From positions 1 through 64,000 of IMG/VR virus record IMGVR_UViG_3300005573_000073: a stretch of DNA of 64,000 bases. The stretch is one strand, 5' to 3'. Under the pieces are notes generated by a model. It saw nothing but the letters and a program-made list of their open reading frames with translations. It had not been told where the DNA came from and ran no database searches. Shown here piece by piece: positions 1,529 to 54,610 of this stretch. Position 1 is the stretch's first letter. Each line of letters opens with the position of its first letter. This stretch comes from a virus. Made by a program: the position numbers and the translations under genes.

Positions 1529-1536
1529 AAAAATTT

Positions 1537-1731
1537 TGTGGATGTGCGGAAATAATGTATTTTTCGCAACAGATTATTGGTTTCACATTAAATTTGTGGT
1601 AACATTATCCCGCACATTTTCCACACTTTTTATGAACCGTTTTATGGGTGCTCATGGATGTGTTTTTCACAAAAATGTATTGTATCACACCACATTTGTG
1701 GTAACACCACAAGCACTTTCCACACGATTCA
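1537..1731 (-). ncRNA. TIGR-like stem-loop guide array 1 (two dual-spacer units)
   Basis: Minus strand: GTTA-CCA-[CAAATGTGG]-TGTGAT-ACA-[ATACATTTT]-TG and GTTA-CCA-[CAAATTTAA]-TGTGAAA-CCA-[ATAATCTGT]-TG, each enclosed by an inverted-repeat stem; starts about 14 nt after the stop of the Nop-domain gene. Confidence 0.85.
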
Positions 1732-1744
1732 CGTTGTTCACTAT

Positions 1745-2689
1745 TTAAATTTTTGCAACTCTATCACATAGGTCTAGAGGATGAATCCACTCGTTTGGTT
1801 TCAACGGAACGAGGTTTCTAACGTGTTGTGGCGGTGGAATTGGCAGTCTGTAAATTTCTTGGTATTTCTCCCATAATATCGAAATAAAAGTTTTTATGAA
1901 TCGTCTTCGTGAAAGATCTAGAACTGACTGAATGTAAGTTTTAGGATGAAGTTTTTTAGCTTCTTTTCTTGTTGTTGCACCAAACCATTTTTTTAAATAT
2001 TTTGCATATTTTTTTCCTTTCATGTCTTCGTGGTAGCGTCTCCATAATTCGTAGCATTTACCTTTCCTTTTTACAATTGATTCAAAGATTATGTAGAAAG
2101 TTTTTCGGTATTCCTGATTTCCAACAACTGACTTATGTTGAACTCTACGATAAGCAAGTCCAGTGGCATCGTCAACTGCGTAACCACATAGTTTAATTAG
2201 GGAACTACGGGATTTTGGTGTGTAAAATTTTACTGTTTTAAATTGTGGTTTAGTTAAAAGTTTACCTTCGTGTTTCTTTTTCATGTATAATGGAACTTCT
2301 AATTCTGCCCAGTATGGTTCGAAATACGCTATAAGTTTTGCTGCTGTGAGAATACTTATGCCTTTAATTCCACGTAACCATTCAGTCCACAGTCTATGTT
2401 GTTCCACGATTGGAGTCATTTCTTTTATAAGTGATTTTTCTAGGTTTTTTATACCTAGAATTTTTCGTTTTCCAACTCCTTCTACTGCTTCGTTTCCTTC
2501 AACCATGCCTTTTTCAATTATGAATCCTAAACGACATGCTGGCATTGTTTCCATTTTAATTGCTCGCATTCGATTTTCAAATGCTATACGTGCTGACTGC
2601 ATATCTTTAAATTTACTGACTAAACTTCGCAGATGAAGTAATTGTTCTTCAGTGATGCCTGAAGGTAACATTTTTGTCTGATTCTTCAA
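1745..2689 (-). CDS. tasA: TasA-like Nop-domain RNA-guided DNA-binding protein (IS110 C-terminal-like, no RuvC/HNH)
   Basis: N-terminal coiled coil LRSLV..ARIAFENR, LRGIKGISILTAAKLIA, SLIKLCG, RRVQHKSVVGNQEYRK, RRRFIKTFISILW; no DEDD RuvC domain and no IS110 catalytic SG motif; adjacent dual-spacer array. Confidence 0.8.
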   Translation of the reverse strand: MKNQTKMLPSGITEEQLLHLRSLVSKFKDMQSARIAFENRMRAIKMETMPACRLGFIIEKGMVEGNEAVEGVGKRKILGIKNLEKSLIKEMTPIVEQHRLWTEWLRGIKGISILTAAKLIAYFEPYWAELEVPLYMKKKHEGKLLTKPQFKTVKFYTPKSRSSLIKLCGYAVDDATGLAYRRVQHKSVVGNQEYRKTFYIIFESIVKRKGKCYELWRRYHEDMKGKKYAKYLKKWFGATTRKEAKKLHPKTYIQSVLDLSRRRFIKTFISILWEKYQEIYRLPIPPPQHVRNLVPLKPNEWIHPLDLCDRVAKI

Positions 2690-2705: not shown

Positions 2706-3647
2706 TTAGTTTTTCTCAAGAAATAACTTGCATAATTCTATAAACATTGCCATTTGTTCATCTAGATTGCTTGTAAGCACCATACGATGTTTCTCAAAAA
2801 CGTTTGTTCCACCGCAGACATCTCCAACCACCCATATTTCATGGGGCTTTATTATTTTACATGTTTTCACAAAGTGTTTCCAGTATTCATATAGTCTTTT
2901 GTTTGCTTCAGTTAAAGATTTAGAATCTTCAATTTCGCTTCCTAACGAAAACTTTGGTGGAGCAACAGCAGCAAGTTCTCCAATGTGAAGGTCAGCGATT
3001 GCAGCCACAATAAAAACAGCATTTTTAACCATTGTCATAAAATAGTCTTCAATTTCAACTTTACCTGTTGAAACGTATTTTTTGGTTGGTTCTTCAGCTT
3101 CGTAAATTTTCTTTTCAAAATGGTTGTAAACAAACGGTTTATAAAGCCATGGTTGCGTATGTATCCGCCCATCTTTTGTTACAATTATAAAGTATGCTCC
3201 AATGTCTGGTTGAAAATGTGCAAAGTTTGCTAATGCTTGTTGATACTCAATAAAAGCTGTCCAAGCAGGCAGATTAATAACTCTGAAAGATTCGTCATCA
3301 AGTGATCCACGTGTAGTGTGACCGTGAGCAGCTACAAGCATGCATATGTCTCTTGGCAATGCTCCTTTGAACATTTGTATCATGAATTTTTCTGCATCTC
3401 GCTGTGACACTGTGTATGGATTTATTGAAGCTAATCTGCGTGGATGAGTTACAAATGCTTTTTTTCCATTGTGAAGATCTTCAAGACTCCATTGAGCTTT
3501 GTGTTCAGCGTTAAAACCAAAATTTTTTAGTTGTGAAACTAGTTGCGATCCAATCATAGTGTCGTATGATCCATGGACATTTGTTCCATCCCAAATTTTT
3601 ATTTTGGGAATCCATTTCTTTTTATTTTTTGTCGTCATATTTATCAC
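2706..3647 (-). CDS. circularly permuted calcineurin-like metallophosphoesterase
   Basis: Motifs in order III (GTNVH), IV (VTH), V (AHGH), then I (IADLHIG) and II (VVGDV). Confidence 0.75.
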   Translation of the reverse strand: MINMTTKNKKKWIPKIKIWDGTNVHGSYDTMIGSQLVSQLKNFGFNAEHKAQWSLEDLHNGKKAFVTHPRRLASINPYTVSQRDAEKFMIQMFKGALPRDICMLVAAHGHTTRGSLDDESFRVINLPAWTAFIEYQQALANFAHFQPDIGAYFIIVTKDGRIHTQPWLYKPFVYNHFEKKIYEAEEPTKKYVSTGKVEIEDYFMTMVKNAVFIVAAIADLHIGELAAVAPPKFSLGSEIEDSKSLTEANKRLYEYWKHFVKTCKIIKPHEIWVVGDVCGGTNVFEKHRMVLTSNLDEQMAMFIELCKLFLEKN

Positions 3648-3651
3648 TTTA

Positions 3652-4038
3652 TTACTTATATTTTCCTCCCTTATAAACTTTGCGGTTTTTTTCCATGCAA
3701 TCTTTAACGTTTGGATGTGTTACAGTGATTAGAACTCGATCTTGCATTCCGCTTATGGTTATTTTTGACTGGTTTATTAAATAGAAATTTGCAAAATCAT
3801 CTGGCAATATAAACGCTAAATAAGATTTAGTTTCAATGTATGGAACAAGTTTAACGTTAAATGCATAATTTAACCAGTTTGGTGATGGTGAGGGAGTAAC
3901 GCCAATCGTGCACCAATCTAAAGCGTAAACTGCAAGAACCTGTGCTTTACTTTTCCATTTTTTATAATCTATCAATTTTTTATCAATTATCACAGTTTTA
4001 CTCAAGTTCTGCTTCAATTTTTTCTTCACCTTCATCAT
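3652..4038 (-). CDS. hypothetical protein
   Basis: 128-aa ORF in a co-directional gene run. Confidence 0.6.
   Translation of the reverse strand: MMKVKKKLKQNLSKTVIIDKKLIDYKKWKSKAQVLAVYALDWCTIGVTPSPSPNWLNYAFNVKLVPYIETKSYLAFILPDDFANFYLINQSKITISGMQDRVLITVTHPNVKDCMEKNRKVYKGGKYK
3670..3689 (-). promoter_or_regulatory. promoter of the phosphoesterase-tasA-array 1 operon
   Basis: AAAACCGCAAAGTTTATAAG, identical over 20 bp to the promoter at 5218-5237. Confidence 0.7.
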
Positions 4039-4891: not shown

Positions 4892-4993
4892 GTGTTTTTC
4901 ACTTCTATTTAAATAGTTTCACCGTTCCGTTATATAAACCTTTCGGTTTTTTACCATACAACCTTTTTTCTTAAAAATAATTACTTCATGTTT

Positions 4994-5194
4994 TGTGGAT
5001 GTGCGGAACAATGTATTTTTCACATGACTCCTCTGTATCACATAACTGATGTGGTAACATTATCCCGCACATTTTCCACACATGTTTGTTTTATGTGAAC
5101 CGTTTTATGGGTGCTCGTGGTGTATTTTTCACAGTGCTCAACCGTATCACATTATAGTTTTGGTAACACCGCAAGACACTTTCCACAGTTCACA
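4994..5194 (-). ncRNA. TIGR-like stem-loop guide array 2 (two dual-spacer units)
   Basis: Direct repeat of array 1 with different spacers: CCA-[AAACTATAA]-TGTGAT-ACG-[GTTGAGCAC]-TG and CCA-[CATCAGTTA]-TGTGAT-ACA-[GAGGAGTCA]-TG; own promoter upstream. Confidence 0.85.
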
Positions 5195-5217
5195 ATTAAT
5201 TATTTGACACAAACTCA

Positions 5218-5237
5218 CTTATAAACTTTGCGGTTTT
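5218..5237 (-). promoter_or_regulatory. promoter driving guide array 2
   Basis: AAAACCGCAAAGTTTATAAG about 24 nt before the first stem; no ORF lies between it and the next promoter. Confidence 0.7.
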
Positions 5238-5812: not shown

Positions 5813-6661
5813 TCATGTAATCATCCTCTCCAAATATTGTTTGTAAAAATTATAAAGTTTTTTAGGGTTAGACCTGTAATAATGTTCTTTACACGCTTTT
5901 TTAACTTCTTCAGCAATTTTGGGCATTGCTAATTTTACATCTTTAAATTTTTCTGTTCCAAGTTCTTGCCAAACCTTATCAATGCAGTTTAACACTTCAC
6001 TGTCTGGAATTGGCGGGTAAATTGGTTGTCCTTTAGCTATTTTCTCTTTAGTTGGACGTGGAACATCAAGCTTAACTTTCGCCATGATATATTCTGATTC
6101 GCCTTCTTTATCCATGAAAGTTTTGATAACCATGCCCTCACGGTGAATTGATTGACAATATTCTAAAATGTGATTTCTAAATTTCAACAAATCTTTAAAG
6201 GTTCGGTGGCGTGTTTTAGCGTAAGCGGGAACAACTGGTATTTTGTAGTGATAACATTGTTGATAAACGAAAATGTATGGTAGAAAATTGTTTGTAGCCC
6301 TGTTAAAAATGTCGAAGACAATGCAGAAATTTTTGTCGTAAAAGTCTATGCCTGTTACACTTCTGCCTTTTCTGCATGCTTCAAAATATATTATATACTC
6401 TGGATTATCGTTTAATAATGAAAGAAGTTTCGGATATTCTTCAGTTGATTTCACGAAGTTTTGCAAATCTTCACTGGCAATTTTCATGTTTCTACTGGAA
6501 AGATGCGGTTGATTATTCTTCATCCATAAAGCCATGCAGGATCCATCGAATTTTTCTGTCCACCATAAAATTTTGCCAAGTAAAATTCTAGGGTTGGGTT
6601 TCATTGTTTCCAAGTTTGGAATATGTGGATATTTTATGAATTTATCATTCTTCATAGTCAT
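5813..6661 (-). CDS. ATP-dependent RNA ligase (Rnl2-like nucleotidyltransferase)
   Basis: KYPHI, TEKFDGS (motif I KxDG), YFE, VFDI, EGMVIK, AKVK. Confidence 0.8.
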   Translation of the reverse strand: MTMKNDKFIKYPHIPNLETMKPNPRILLGKILWWTEKFDGSCMALWMKNNQPHLSSRNMKIASEDLQNFVKSTEEYPKLLSLLNDNPEYIIYFEACRKGRSVTGIDFYDKNFCIVFDIFNRATNNFLPYIFVYQQCYHYKIPVVPAYAKTRHRTFKDLLKFRNHILEYCQSIHREGMVIKTFMDKEGESEYIMAKVKLDVPRPTKEKIAKGQPIYPPIPDSEVLNCIDKVWQELGTEKFKDVKLAMPKIAEEVKKACKEHYYRSNPKKLYNFYKQYLERMIT

Positions 6662-16214: not shown

Positions 16215-18095
16215 TTAAGCAGCCCTGTAAGTTGAAGGGGACACTTCAATAATTTTTCCATTATTAATTAACTGTATAATTAAACGGTCAAATTCGTCTG
16301 GAGATATTTTGAATTTACATTCATCCATCCATTCGTCTCTTGTAAGTTGATCATATTTTCTTAATATATCCAGCATGTAAGCCAATTTTTGTCCTAAAGT
16401 TGTTGCGTTTTCAATATTATAAATGTTACCATCATCTGATCCAAACTTACATGTCTGTTTTAACGATTCTGACATTATGTAAATAGCTCTTTCAGCATCA
16501 TCTTCATCAACTTCTTCTTTTAAAAGAATTTTAGCGTGTGCTTCAGCTAACCTGATTAAACCATATAATTGTCTAGGTGTTATTTGAATAGCGTTATCCA
16601 GACTTTGTGATTGACGAGCCTTTAAAAAGAAATTTTCAAGTTTATCTTCTGCTTTTACAGTCATTTTGGGTTTTAAATTTTTAGCATATGCCAAATAATT
16701 CATTAAAAATTCCCTATCGATATATTCTACGTTTCTATTTCCAAAAACACAATCCACAAGCATCTTATCTCTTTCAATATCTGGCTTATCAATTATTATA
16801 AAGATTAAATCAAATCTGCTTAAAATAGTTGGCGGAAGATTTTTAATATTGTCAGCAATGTCTTTTGTTAAATCATATCTACCCATTTGCGGGTTTGCAG
16901 CAGCAATCACGGTTGTTCTTGCTGATAATTGAGTATGAATATCAGCCTTATGATAAGTTACAGTTTGCTTTTCTAATGCTTCATGAATAGCTTCCCTATC
17001 TTCAGGTTTCATTTTATCAATTTCATCTATACAAGCAACTCCCCCATCCGCCAATACTAAAATTCCAGCGTAAAGGATATACCCATCATTTTCTTTAATT
17101 GCTGCTGCTGTTAATCCAGCAATAGATGAACTTTTTGCACTTGAAAAAATACCGTTGGACACTAAACTTGATGCTGCTGTTAAAAGTTGTGTTTTACCAA
17201 CGGAAGGATCTCCAACTAATAAAACATGTGTATTGCCACGTATATTAATATCTGGATATGCTTTTGGAACGCCACCTACTAATGCTAGTAAAACAGCTTC
17301 TTTTTCTAGTTCTAACCCATTTAAACTTGGTGCAACATTAAAAATTAATGTGTTGTATATATTTGGTTGTTTTGTAAATTGCTTAAACTGTTCAATTTGT
17401 TCGTTGGTAAAACTTGAAATAGAAATATCTTTTCTTTTAACAGTAATACTATCAGCCTCAATAAAAGTTTCTGTAAAACGACTTGTTTGACTTCCCAAGA
17501 AATTTCTAATTTTAACAACACCGACAACTTCTACATGATCTCCGCATCTTGCTAAATTTAACAATGATTTTTTCGTAATTAAAATGCTTTTGTGATCTGG
17601 AATTTGAAGTGTGGAATCCTTGGGAAATTCTTGAACAACAATTCGTTGACTGTTGCAGAACTTGCTTAATTCTGAATTTAAGTCAAGTTTAGTTAGATTA
17701 CGACAATGTGGACATTTATACGGCGAAGTAATCTTAAATGGATCTTCTTGTAATACGTGAATTTGACTTTGACATTTTCTACAAATAAAAATAGCCTCAT
17801 TATACATTGGTTTAATACTGCCAATGCTACTTATCATTCCACGAATTTTAATCAGTTTACCTATATGGTCTGAACCGATTTCATGTATTGGAATTAAATA
17901 TTTATCTGATAATAAGATGTTAACATCCATATTAAATGACAATTCAGATTTGATTCTATCTATCGCACTTTTTGCTTCAGTAAAATTTGAATAAACATAA
18001 TCTTCATTTTCCTCATCAAGAATAAGTTCAACATTTTTATCTCCTTTACTTTTAGAAATTACTTCATAAACATAATTTTTGAATTTTTCAGACAA
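16215..18095 (-). CDS. mcm: MCM replicative helicase
   Basis: Zn finger CRKC..CPHC, LLVGDPSVGKTQLL, GLTAA, ACIDEIDKM, AAANP, SRFDL, ITPRQL. Confidence 0.95.
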   Translation of the reverse strand: MSEKFKNYVYEVISKSKGDKNVELILDEENEDYVYSNFTEAKSAIDRIKSELSFNMDVNILLSDKYLIPIHEIGSDHIGKLIKIRGMISSIGSIKPMYNEAIFICRKCQSQIHVLQEDPFKITSPYKCPHCRNLTKLDLNSELSKFCNSQRIVVQEFPKDSTLQIPDHKSILITKKSLLNLARCGDHVEVVGVVKIRNFLGSQTSRFTETFIEADSITVKRKDISISSFTNEQIEQFKQFTKQPNIYNTLIFNVAPSLNGLELEKEAVLLALVGGVPKAYPDINIRGNTHVLLVGDPSVGKTQLLTAASSLVSNGIFSSAKSSSIAGLTAAAIKENDGYILYAGILVLADGGVACIDEIDKMKPEDREAIHEALEKQTVTYHKADIHTQLSARTTVIAAANPQMGRYDLTKDIADNIKNLPPTILSRFDLIFIIIDKPDIERDKMLVDCVFGNRNVEYIDREFLMNYLAYAKNLKPKMTVKAEDKLENFFLKARQSQSLDNAIQITPRQLYGLIRLAEAHAKILLKEEVDEDDAERAIYIMSESLKQTCKFGSDDGNIYNIENATTLGQKLAYMLDILRKYDQLTRDEWMDECKFKISPDEFDRLIIQLINNGKIIEVSPSTYRAA

Positions 18096-53620: not shown

Positions 53621-54610
53621 ATGACGGATACAAGAGAGATTGTTGATGAAATTGTTAAAACAAAATCTCACGTGATTAAAGAGTTTTTGGATAAACTTGG
53701 CAAAATAAAGATTGAACCTGTTGACATTGAAAAACTTGAAAAACAAGAACAGGAACAATTTAAAATTAAAACTGGAACAATAATAGATGAAATGATTGGT
53801 GGAGGAGTTCCTGAAGGTAAATCTGTGATGCTTTATGGAGAGTTTGGAAGTGGAAAAACACAAACATGTTTTACGACAGTTTGTTTAGCAAAAGGTTACA
53901 TAATATACATTGATACAGAAGGAAGTTTTTCTTGTCAACGATTAAAACAAATCTGTGAAAGTCGCAAAATAGACTGGAATGATGTTAAGAAAAGAATAAT
54001 TCTTTACACAGCAGAAAACTGGATTCAACAAATGTATATTTTACAAAGTCTTCCAAGTCCATCTGATGTTAATGGAAAAGTTGATTTAATAATATGCGAT
54101 AGTTACAGCAAACATTTTCGTGGAATTGAGTTTGTTGGTAGAGAAACATTACAGCTTAAAAATGGATTCATAAGAGAATTCATATTTTCGTTAGAACGAT
54201 TAGCAAAACAACACCGTGCAGCATTAATTTACACCACTCAAATTTACGATGAACCAAAAGCTTCACCATACGCAACTAAAGCCGACACACAAAAACCTGT
54301 TGGCGGACATAGTGCAGAACATCAACCTGATTTTATACTGTTCTTTAGAAGAGGAACAGGAAACGTAAGAATTGTCCGTATGGTTGATTCTAGTTATACA
54401 GCATTAAGTGAACGGGCATTTTTAATTACAGAAAAAGGAATTGAAGATCTTCCACCTGATACTAAAATATCTAAAACACTTGAACCGCAAATCGAAAAAT
54501 TCGAGACAAAGCAACATCAAGAAGAAATAAAAATAAAGAAAAAAGAAAAAAGTCAAGATCAAGAGAATAAAGATAGTGAAGAGGAAATTGTTGATGAAGC
54601 GGTGATGTAA
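53621..54610 (+). CDS. radA: RadA/RecA-family recombinase
   Basis: IDEMIGGG, YGEFGSGKTQ, YIDTEGSF, LIICDS, PVGGH. Confidence 0.9.
   Translation: MTDTREIVDEIVKTKSHVIKEFLDKLGKIKIEPVDIEKLEKQEQEQFKIKTGTIIDEMIGGGVPEGKSVMLYGEFGSGKTQTCFTTVCLAKGYIIYIDTEGSFSCQRLKQICESRKIDWNDVKKRIILYTAENWIQQMYILQSLPSPSDVNGKVDLIICDSYSKHFRGIEFVGRETLQLKNGFIREFIFSLERLAKQHRAALIYTTQIYDEPKASPYATKADTQKPVGGHSAEHQPDFILFFRRGTGNVRIVRMVDSSYTALSERAFLITEKGIEDLPPDTKISKTLEPQIEKFETKQHQEEIKIKKKEKSQDQENKDSEEEIVDEAVM

Follow-up and report, generated by a model that had tools for sequence, protein, structure and literature searches.

A circularly permuted metallophosphoesterase family of environmental viruses, found in some of them next to tasA

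Introduction

Calcineurin-like metallophosphoesterases (MPEs) form a superfamily in which five motifs follow one another in the order I-II-III-IV-V, and the described proteins that come closest to the one studied here keep that order. The best match in both structure and sequence profile is DP1, the small subunit of the archaeal polymerase PolD, which acts as a 3′-5′ proofreading exonuclease (PDB 5IHE, 6HMF, 9F2A). Mre11/SbcD nucleases have the same fold, and phages encode single-gene, DP1-like MPEs that are labelled 'DNA polymerase II small subunit', 'metallophosphatase' or, in PHROG 284, 'exonuclease'. Here we describe a gene for a relative of these enzymes in which the two parts of the chain have changed places. 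It is carried by the virus of IMG/VR record IMGVR_UViG_3300005573_000073; the window, that is, the whole stretch of 64,000 nt that was analysed, is the first 64 kb of this complete 93.7-kb genome, which has direct terminal repeats. In the window the gene lies directly upstream of tasA, a gene of the TIGR-Tas (tandem interspaced guide RNA-Tas) systems.

To our knowledge, no circularly permuted calcineurin-like phosphoesterase has been described before, and we know of natural circular permutations being well documented for only a limited set of enzyme folds. A search of the open-access full-text literature returned no paper on a circularly permuted calcineurin-like MPE, although such an absence is not proof.

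Three motifs (I, II and V) are common to DP1 and the viral family, and so are a conserved Gln that follows motif II and a Trp that follows motif V. However, the DP1 chain is 440 aa long, with residues 347-619 aligning to P0055, a canonical-order relative of the viral protein, whereas the viral MPE is a single domain of about 310 residues that, to judge from its length, leaves no room for an extra domain such as the N-terminal oligonucleotide/oligosaccharide-binding fold of DP1. DP1 is also collinear and keeps the Asn of motif III, which is replaced in the permuted protein. Mre11/SbcD is related through the nuclease fold itself (Z about 14) and through weak matches, around motif II, to A2, a profile built from 40 canonical-order relatives; SbcD-type models in turn match individual canonical relatives weakly (phrog_100 on P0056; TIGR00619 on P0156, E 0.056). 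It differs in being structurally less similar than DP1, in having Rad50/SbcC as a partner and in its capping domain, for which a protein of about 310 aa would have no space. The phage MPEs differ in being collinear (I-V), and most of those listed are longer (about 250-500 aa). In the case of P0055-P0058, four metagenomic proteins that are 36-38% identical to the permuted MPE in both segments and hold the sister position in the tree, the family motifs GDxxxGxN, G[ST]xxH, PCW and QPDIG are shared, but the N-to-C order is the normal one and a Tyr, not a Val, occupies the position of the motif III Asn.

On the side of TIGR-Tas, reports of accessory genes that share an operon with tasA have so far been limited to tasParB (Faure et al. 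2025, PMC12045711). Like the gene described here, it is a non-Tas gene in an operon with a nuclease-less tasA, and arrays lie upstream, downstream or between the genes (PMC12045711); it differs in that its product has a ParB-like DNA-binding fold and is not a phosphoesterase. An MPE partner is mentioned neither in PMC12045711 nor in a 2026 preprint (10.64898/2026.09.09.750476). Our reading of the permuted MPE, to which we give about even chances, is that it is a core viral nucleic-acid phosphodiesterase/exonuclease, permuted and probably active, which is independent of TasA and whose variable flanks have been settled by TIGR-TasA.

Results

Sequence comparison indicates that the circular permutation is genuine: the chain starts at motif III and ends past motif II. 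In an exhaustive phmmer search over 1.8 billion representatives, with the permuted MPE as query, P0035 and P0051-P0054 aligned collinearly, at identities down to 32%, and about 90 proteins of 260-300 aa aligned as two swapped stretches, query residues 15-187 falling on residues ~110-282 of the relative and query residues 206-311 on residues ~4-110. The phmmer E-value against P0055 was 1e-40, and BLASTP resolved the same protein into query 13-189 on subject 108-284 (2e-39) and query 207-309 on subject 7-108 (3e-12), two segments that join precisely at P0055 residue 108. Run over the virus genome, A2 matched with model positions 100-272 at 3117-3650 (2e-37) and with positions 6-110 at 2706-3026 (3e-26). 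Classification of the 171 collected proteins with this profile yielded 56 permuted and about 100 full-length collinear sequences, and a breakpoint near model position 108 is common to every one of the 56. The order III-IV-V-I-II, which an initial annotation of this DNA had read from the motifs, is thus borne out by homology in two pieces.

The N-terminal segment of the protein bears motif III (G21-T-x-V-H25), motif IV (H68) and motif V (H108-G-H110), together with the family motifs P127-x-W129 and P147-D148-I-G150, and the C-terminal segment bears motif I (D219-x-H221), motif II (G275-D276...G280) and two further conserved residues, N282 and Q298. The present chain ends fall between the helix that follows motif II and the strand that leads into motif III, and the former ends are connected by a linker of about 30 residues, variable in length and sequence, which forms gappy, poorly conserved columns in A1 (the alignment and profile of 24 permuted-family homologs) and in which the secondary structure of the model predicts a short helix at residues 201-208. 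Secondary-structure elements of the permuted protein match those of the P0055 model one to one in swapped order: E15-19 through E180-182 of the query correspond to E112-116 through E275-277 of P0055, and E210-218 through H295-310 correspond to E10-17 through H94-105.

For the tree, permuted sequences were cut at the linker, re-ordered and analysed with 79 canonical relatives in a quick IQ-TREE search. The 19 permuted representatives group together as a single clade, with an SH-aLRT support of 100 and the permutation as one change on the tree; this clade is nested inside a 99-supported group with the canonical P0055-P0058. Because this clade is single and nested among canonical forms, the permutation arose once, from a canonical-order ancestor, and identities within the clade have since then fallen to about 32%. 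A search for longer proteins, either duplicated (MPE-MPE intermediates) or fused (MPE-Tas), found none, which is weak evidence. An assembly artefact was rejected, as the same arrangement is found within 29 independent contigs.

The gene is a single uninterrupted open reading frame (ORF) on the minus strand, of 313 aa if read from the GTG at 3647; the database gene call (P0001, 310 aa) begins at the ATG at 3638, which is the probable start. The motifs quoted in the initial annotation are all present: GTNVH (residues 21-25), VTH (66-68), AHGH (107-110), LPAW (126-129), PDIG (147-150), ADLHIG (218-223) and VVGDVCGG (273-280). LPAW and PDIG had been counted there among the calcineurin-like motifs, but they are specific to the family and not classical MPE motifs. 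We found 50 homologs at E≤0.001, the full-length members being 302-320 aa long, with identities of 51-70%; each is either without a name or called 'hypothetical', and metagenomic contigs of 50-150 kb carry several of them. Invariant in A1 are H25, H49, H68, H108, G109, H110, D148, D219, H221, G275 and D276. The permuted MPE was unmatched in blastn and tblastn searches of 50,697 deposited phage genomes, and scans of IMG/VR with A1, A3 and P0149 as queries gave no match.

By sequence homology, the permuted MPE can be assigned to the proteins with the MPE beta-sandwich fold. The AlphaFold2 model of the canonical relative P0055 (pLDDT 93.6, pTM 0.92) had 281 Foldseek matches in the PDB at E≤1e-3, all of them MPEs among the matches listed, with DP1 as the best (2.4e-10). 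VIA-align placed the same model nearest to DP1 (5ihe_A, Z 19.4 over 225 aa, 3.2 A), followed by Pol delta p50 (16.5), MJ0936 (15.5) and SbcD/Mre11 (about 14); 69 chains reached Z≥8, and among the matches listed (the best 50) all have the MPE fold. When A2 was compared with PDB sequences, DP1 was the sole significant match (5ihe_A, 8.8e-4), with Mre11/SbcD and Vps29 next. The best BFVD matches of P0055 are phage proteins labelled 'DNA polymerase II small subunit' or metallophosphatase (1.5e-13 to 1e-10). In addition, canonical relatives match PHROG families named 'exonuclease', 'DNA repair exonuclease' and 'SbcD-like', one of them (P0079) is named metallophosphoesterase by NCBI, and they give weak Metallophos matches, P0055 scoring 20.7 bits on PF00149 where the cut-off is 21.5. 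Models and profiles together place the PolD DP1/polymerase B-subunit branch closest among MPEs, and the kinship with Mre11 and DP1 named in the initial annotation agrees with this: the nearest solved relatives of the family are DP1 and Mre11-type nucleases.

The breadth of the superfamily leaves a slight chance that the substrate is something other than nucleic-acid ends, such as phosphoproteins, cyclic or linear nucleotide defence signals, or dinucleoside polyphosphates. Indeed, MPEs are promiscuous as a superfamily, LpxH, GpdQ, Rv0805 and an Ap4A hydrolase are structural neighbours of P0055 at Z 12-15, and the flanking genes are unannotated or variable, a context that does not fix the substrate. 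On the other hand, DP1 and the polymerase B-subunits score about 3-5 Z units above most other MPE classes (MJ0936, at 15.5, ranks between p50 and the Pol delta B-subunit), DP1 is the only significant sequence-profile match, and the PHROG relatives are labelled exonucleases, all of which speaks for the nucleic-acid reading that we favour.

Conservation at the active site was assessed on 50 permuted and 79 canonical sequences aligned in canonical order. The permuted family is invariant at seven metal-binding or catalytic positions: D219, H221, D276, H25, H68, H108 and H110 are each found in 50/50 sequences. The same residues occupy 77/79 (D219, H221 and H108), 79/79 (H25, H68 and H110) and 73/79 (D276, with Glu in the other 6) of the canonical ones. 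G275 of motif II is likewise present in 50/50, and the listed motif residues, G275 included, in 69-79/79 canonical sequences. With its classical ligands and catalytic His kept almost without exception, the permuted MPE is probably active and binuclear. The position that aligns with the motif III Asn of DP1 is Val24, Val in 44/50 permuted sequences and Tyr in 71/79 canonical ones. This Asn metal ligand (GNH[DE]) is typical of the MPE superfamily, without being universal. The conserved Asn/Gln two residues after GDxxxG and Gln298 are candidates that might substitute for the lost ligand. The initial annotation had further pointed to a Gly in place of the second Asp of the motif II signature GDxxD; the substitution is real, but it is not special, as different residues are found at this position throughout the family (A/C/G in permuted, E/Q/D/A in canonical forms). 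Finally, the metagenomic canonical relative P0089 (635 aa) carries a LAGLIDADG/Hint intein within the P-C-W motif, right after motif V. Inteins typically insert where replication and repair proteins have their essential catalytic sites, and its presence there suggests that the site is important.

The loss of the motif III Asn and the absence of the second Asp of motif II are what one could expect of a non-catalytic scaffold resembling Vps29 or the eukaryotic polymerase B-subunits, the latter being among the nearest structural neighbours. We consider this extremely unlikely. Inactivated MPEs typically lose their metal-binding and catalytic residues, whereas here the seven positions are complete throughout a clade in which identity drops to 32% for the most distant collinear member, and nearly invariant in the canonical relatives.

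The protein encoded downstream of the MPE matches NCBIfam NF052498 (TIGR_Tas_endo) over residues 20-275 at 1.3e-21, below the equivalog cut-off; it also matches phrog_4285 (3e-16), a PHROG named 'transposase', Atlas viral clusters with PF02371 and, weakly, the IS110 C-terminal-domain protein of PDB 9mty_A. With 314 aa it is too short to include a nuclease domain, which justifies the name TasA. A promoter-like motif, AACCGMAAMSTTTAWAWR, is present in 9 copies in the window against 0.01 expected, and 8 of the 9 are followed, on the same strand and at a distance of 20-40 nt, by an ORF start or by guide array 2. The MPE gene is preceded by one copy, as the initial annotation had it; an identical one stands ahead of guide array 2 and a further one at 1511-1528, past guide array 1. 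The 16 nt that separate the MPE stop from the TTG start of tasA, a spacing also given correctly in the initial annotation, are devoid of the promoter motif and hold the Shine-Dalgarno-like GGAAGTGA. With a promoter at 3670-3687, none in this gap and the next one past array 1, co-transcription of the MPE gene, tasA and guide array 1 from one promoter is plausible from the layout. Promoter layout and NCBIfam match thus sustain the view that the MPE gene and a nuclease-less Tas gene share one probable transcription unit. The two guide arrays are doublets of about 200 nt, 77.5% identical over 200 nt, which bracket a block of small ORFs, the MPE gene and tasA. The host of the virus is probably an archaeon, as would fit a RadA-type recombinase, a family B polymerase (PolB) with its own exonuclease domain and promoters that resemble BRE (TFIIB recognition element) and TATA elements.

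How constant is the association with TasA? A metagenome scan gave 31 related loci, 29 of which have a recognisable MPE ORF, and this ORF is permuted in 29/29. The matches of a hidden Markov model of TasA were confined to L001 and L002, where tasA lies downstream of the MPE gene, and to L018 and L019/L020, where it lies upstream; adding the array-only L021, TasA or TIGR arrays adjoin the MPE gene in 5 distinct loci. In a non-redundant set of 16 loci with at least 1.2 kb on each side, for which flanks of up to 8 kb were fetched, TasA is present in 4/16, and in the other 12/16 neither TasA nor a TGTGAACC array was found in these flanks. Co-occurrence with tasA is not consistent in the metagenome loci, where TasA is confined to the four loci just mentioned, in addition to the window and the array-only locus. 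As the MPE gene stands in 12 loci that lack TasA and arrays, the enzyme does not depend on TasA, and for the same reason the proposal of the initial annotation that it may be a TasA effector or a guide-maturation enzyme is not supported in the form given there.

In TasA-bearing loci the arrays are of the dual-repeat TIGR type, with TGTGAACC and repeats of the TGTAAA or TTGAAAAAC type in alternation at a period of 35-37 nt, and are placed between the MPE gene and tasA and beyond tasA; in L018 and L019 they also follow the MPE gene immediately and so bracket it. L021 has a 7-copy TGTGAACC array (L021:6003-6219) directly upstream of the MPE gene and no tasA upstream; its contig ends within the MPE gene, and tasA may lie beyond that end. 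Several side observations concern these arrays. The last TGTGAACC repeat merges into the promoter consensus AACCG.AA..TTTA.A.A (L001:2948-2975, L001:4125-4152, L019:3054-3080, L019:4133-4177), so that arrays end in the promoter of the next gene, and an AACC core is found both in the repeat and in the promoter's BRE-like part. The TasA proteins of L001, L002, L018 and L019 are 46-65% identical to that of the window and are encoded beside classical dual-repeat arrays of 35-37-nt period, and the guides of the window are single repeat-spacer-repeat-spacer units in long hairpins. From these sequences it looks as if the array architecture had switched within one TasA lineage.

These neighbourhoods raise the question of whether the MPE is a TIGR-TasA accessory, which would supply the nuclease-less TasA with a nuclease in trans or trim or heal the ends of hairpin TIGR guide RNAs (tigRNAs). 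Several facts would fit: the MPE gene stands beside TasA, arrays or both in the window, L001, L002, L018, L019/L020 and L021, in two gene orders; the arrays flank it on both sides in L018 and L019; in the window it probably shares a single promoter with tasA and array 1, and the two genes are found together away from the usual MPE site; and the divergences of TasA and MPE are roughly parallel (65/70, 46/58 and 53/54% identity). Moreover, in the preprint 10.64898/2026.09.09.750476 the processing of stem-loop tigRNAs is left unexplained, and flanking sequence improves processing in other systems. Against this, the MPE gene is found with neither TasA nor array in those 12 of 16 loci, and canonical-order relatives occur in unrelated viruses without Tas, one near lysozyme, Clp protease and tail genes. 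TasA by itself is described in the preprint as an RNA-guided repressor of transcription, the partners given in a published survey of tas neighbourhoods are all ParB-like (PMC12045711), and in L001 and L002 tasA has a promoter-like sequence of its own after the array. The failure to find an MPE-Tas fusion also counts against the idea, if weakly. In our opinion an accessory role is unlikely, albeit credible. That the permuted, DP1-like MPE is specifically the missing catalytic partner of TIGR-TasA in these archaeal viruses, for cutting or degrading DNA or for maturing hairpin tigRNAs, seems to us quite unlikely. A partnership of the MPE with TasA is not established, and we continue with the MPE as a TasA-independent core enzyme.

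The usual place of the MPE gene in related loci is the head of a rightward operon that runs from beside the terminase block to a RadA-like recombinase. In 11-12 loci without TasA it is followed by a conserved gene of about 90 aa, often overlapping the MPE stop, whose product is all-helical; this gene has no Pfam or PHROG match and is absent from all TasA-bearing loci and from the window. It may encode a partner of the MPE, or it may occupy the slot that TIGR-TasA takes. In 6 distinct loci, again without TasA, the 3′ end of the MPE gene borders on genes for HNH endonucleases, which may lie on one strand or the other, and this marks the flank as an insertion hot spot. Two of these loci also carry a ParB-like gene (phrog_26377, 2e-7) about 1.5 kb downstream of the MPE gene (L007:3496-4590, L012:4320-5489), and TasA was not detected there. 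L037, a locus of a canonical-order relative, has tail, lysozyme, Clp protease and zinc-ribbon genes nearby and no informative partner. In the window itself, the 128-aa ORF upstream of the MPE gene, whose 3′ end contains the MPE promoter, gave no Pfam, PHROG or NCBIfam match and no BLASTP homolog among the ORFs of related loci.

The window also encodes an RNA ligase, 2.2 kb upstream of the MPE gene and on the same strand. The MPE fold includes enzymes of RNA end healing, for which the MPE module of bacterial Pnkp is the model, and MJ0936-type phosphodiesterases are near in structure (Z 15.5). The MPE could on these grounds be a 2′,3′-cyclic phosphodiesterase or 3′-phosphatase that prepares RNA ends for the ligase in RNA repair. 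This is, however, very unlikely: no homolog of the ligase was found in the fetched flanks (up to 8 kb) of any related locus, meaning that the linkage is not conserved, the nearest relatives of the MPE are subunits of DNA exonucleases, and no kinase module was seen beside the MPE gene. The features considered are collected in Table 1.

Table 1. Position of the MPE gene, its segments and the accompanying features. Coordinates are those of the window unless a locus is named.
Feature	Location	Strand	Basis or remark
Circularly permuted MPE gene	2706..3647	-	ORF, homologs, AlphaFold2 model, homology in two swapped pieces
MPE N-terminal segment, residues 11-177	3117..3617	-	C-terminal two thirds of canonical MPE; A2 positions 108-272
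MPE linker, residues 178-207	3027..3116	-	Joins ancestral C-terminus to ancestral N-terminus; outside canonical profile
MPE C-terminal segment, residues 208-312	2712..3026	-	N-terminal third of canonical MPE; A2 positions 6-108, E 3e-26
BRE/TATA-like promoter motif AACCGCAAAGTTTATAAG	3670..3687	-	32 nt before ATG 3638 and 23 nt before GTG 3647
tasA, Nop/IS110-C-terminal-domain protein, 314 aa, no nuclease domain	1745..2689	-	16 nt downstream of MPE stop
Guide array 1, two hairpin-embedded tigRNA-like units	1530..1745	-	Downstream of tasA; repeats
Guide array 2	4990..5215	-	Behind its own promoter copy (5218-5235); repeats
128-aa ORF upstream of MPE gene, function unassigned	3652..4038	-	MPE promoter inside its 3′ end
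RNA ligase	5813-6661	-	PF09414, 2.5e-13
Large AAA helicase	16215-18095	-	phrog_10371, 1e-130
Rad51/RadA-type recombinase	53621-54610	+	PF08423, 9e-40
~90-aa all-helical gene downstream of MPE gene	L005:8939-9232, L015:4512-4790, L023:837-1115, L024:4406-4675, others		
HNH endonuclease genes beside MPE gene	L007:1890-2357, L012:3006-3497, L013:9186-9659, L014:8905-9417, L016:8921-9391, L022:8942-9376		

Discussion

What does a permuted MPE do in these viruses? The role of a core nuclease is suggested by the nearest relatives, which are 3′-5′ exonuclease subunits and Mre11/SbcD, by the exonuclease labels of the PHROG families and by the usual location in a replication/recombination operon. The permutation arose once, in a virus-borne MPE family whose nearest solved relatives are PolD DP1 and Mre11/SbcD. 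In the permuted enzyme, according to this model, D219 and H221 of motif I, D276 of motif II, H68 of motif IV and H108 and H110 of motif V would hold two metal ions, and H25, the His of motif III, would assist the hydrolysis of phosphodiesters at nucleic-acid ends. The substrate and role proposed here, by analogy with these relatives, are those of a metal-dependent enzyme that may act on nucleic-acid ends during replication or recombination of the viral genome. The TIGR-TasA cassette, for its part, may have inserted beside the conserved MPE gene, where the flanks are variable, in the same way as the HNH homing endonuclease genes of sister viruses.

A number of observations weigh against this interpretation. 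Concerning the protein, the Pfam, PHROG and NCBIfam models give zero matches on the permuted MPE itself, and its AlphaFold2 model (pLDDT 81, pTM 0.86) yields nothing with Foldseek at E≤1e-3 and half-length MPE matches only with VIA-align (Z 4-5); the profile A1 has no match among PDB sequences even at E 10. Collinear hidden Markov models are, however, expected to miss a permuted and divergent sequence, and we take the weak, half-length structure matches to arise because a sequential aligner meets a permuted chain, and not to point to a new fold. Residues ~11-170 of the model indeed fall on the C-terminal parts of DP1, MJ0936, LpxH, Vps29 and TM1076, and the best VIA-align match, a weak one, is again DP1 (Z 5.2 over residues 6-173). 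At the active site, the Asn ligand of motif III is missing. Concerning the genome, an obvious partner for a role in DNA transactions is not at hand: the family B polymerase has an exonuclease domain of its own, and models of Rad50/SbcC (PF13476, PF02463) had no match in the complete 93.7-kb genome, with all control genomes positive. A second, ordinary small MPE, encoded outside the window at 87988-88365 (minus strand) of the virus genome (PF00149, 26.2 bits, in a 185-aa frame; loci L035 and L036), also weighs against a neat functional story. Concerning the neighbourhood, TasA and TIGR arrays, wherever they were seen in these loci, adjoin the MPE gene directly, in two gene orders, and in the window the usual MPE site is taken by other genes and the MPE-tasA pair lies about 45 kb away, as if the two had moved together. 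A pure hot-spot explanation does not predict that TIGR-TasA always touches the MPE gene, nor that the pair moves jointly.

Two more specific roles within the same functional area were considered and rejected. The protein is too short for the extra domain of a DP1 orthologue or proofreading subunit, and the polymerase identified in the virus is a PolB that already contains an exonuclease domain. A Mre11-Rad50 pair encoded by the virus was discarded given that no Rad50/SbcC is present in its genome, although the host might supply a partner.

The fold of this MPE and probably its chemistry are known; what is new is the permuted topology and the unannotated family. The family escaped both the collinear profiles of Pfam, PHROGs and NCBIfam and the structure searches that align sequentially, and as a result a conserved core gene of a group of environmental viruses of about 95 kb is at present annotated as 'hypothetical'. 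The recurrence of tasA and TIGR arrays against the MPE gene provides a testable candidate partner, though the present evidence favours independence; if the MPE were the catalytic partner of TasA, it would be the first trans-acting enzyme of a TIGR-Tas system. For the MPE family itself, a deep monophyletic permuted clade stands beside a canonical sister group, and its breakpoint is fixed at a single place, past the helix of motif II and ahead of the strand of motif III. This is a clean natural experiment on folding and on how a two-metal site is put together when each half of the chain contributes to it.

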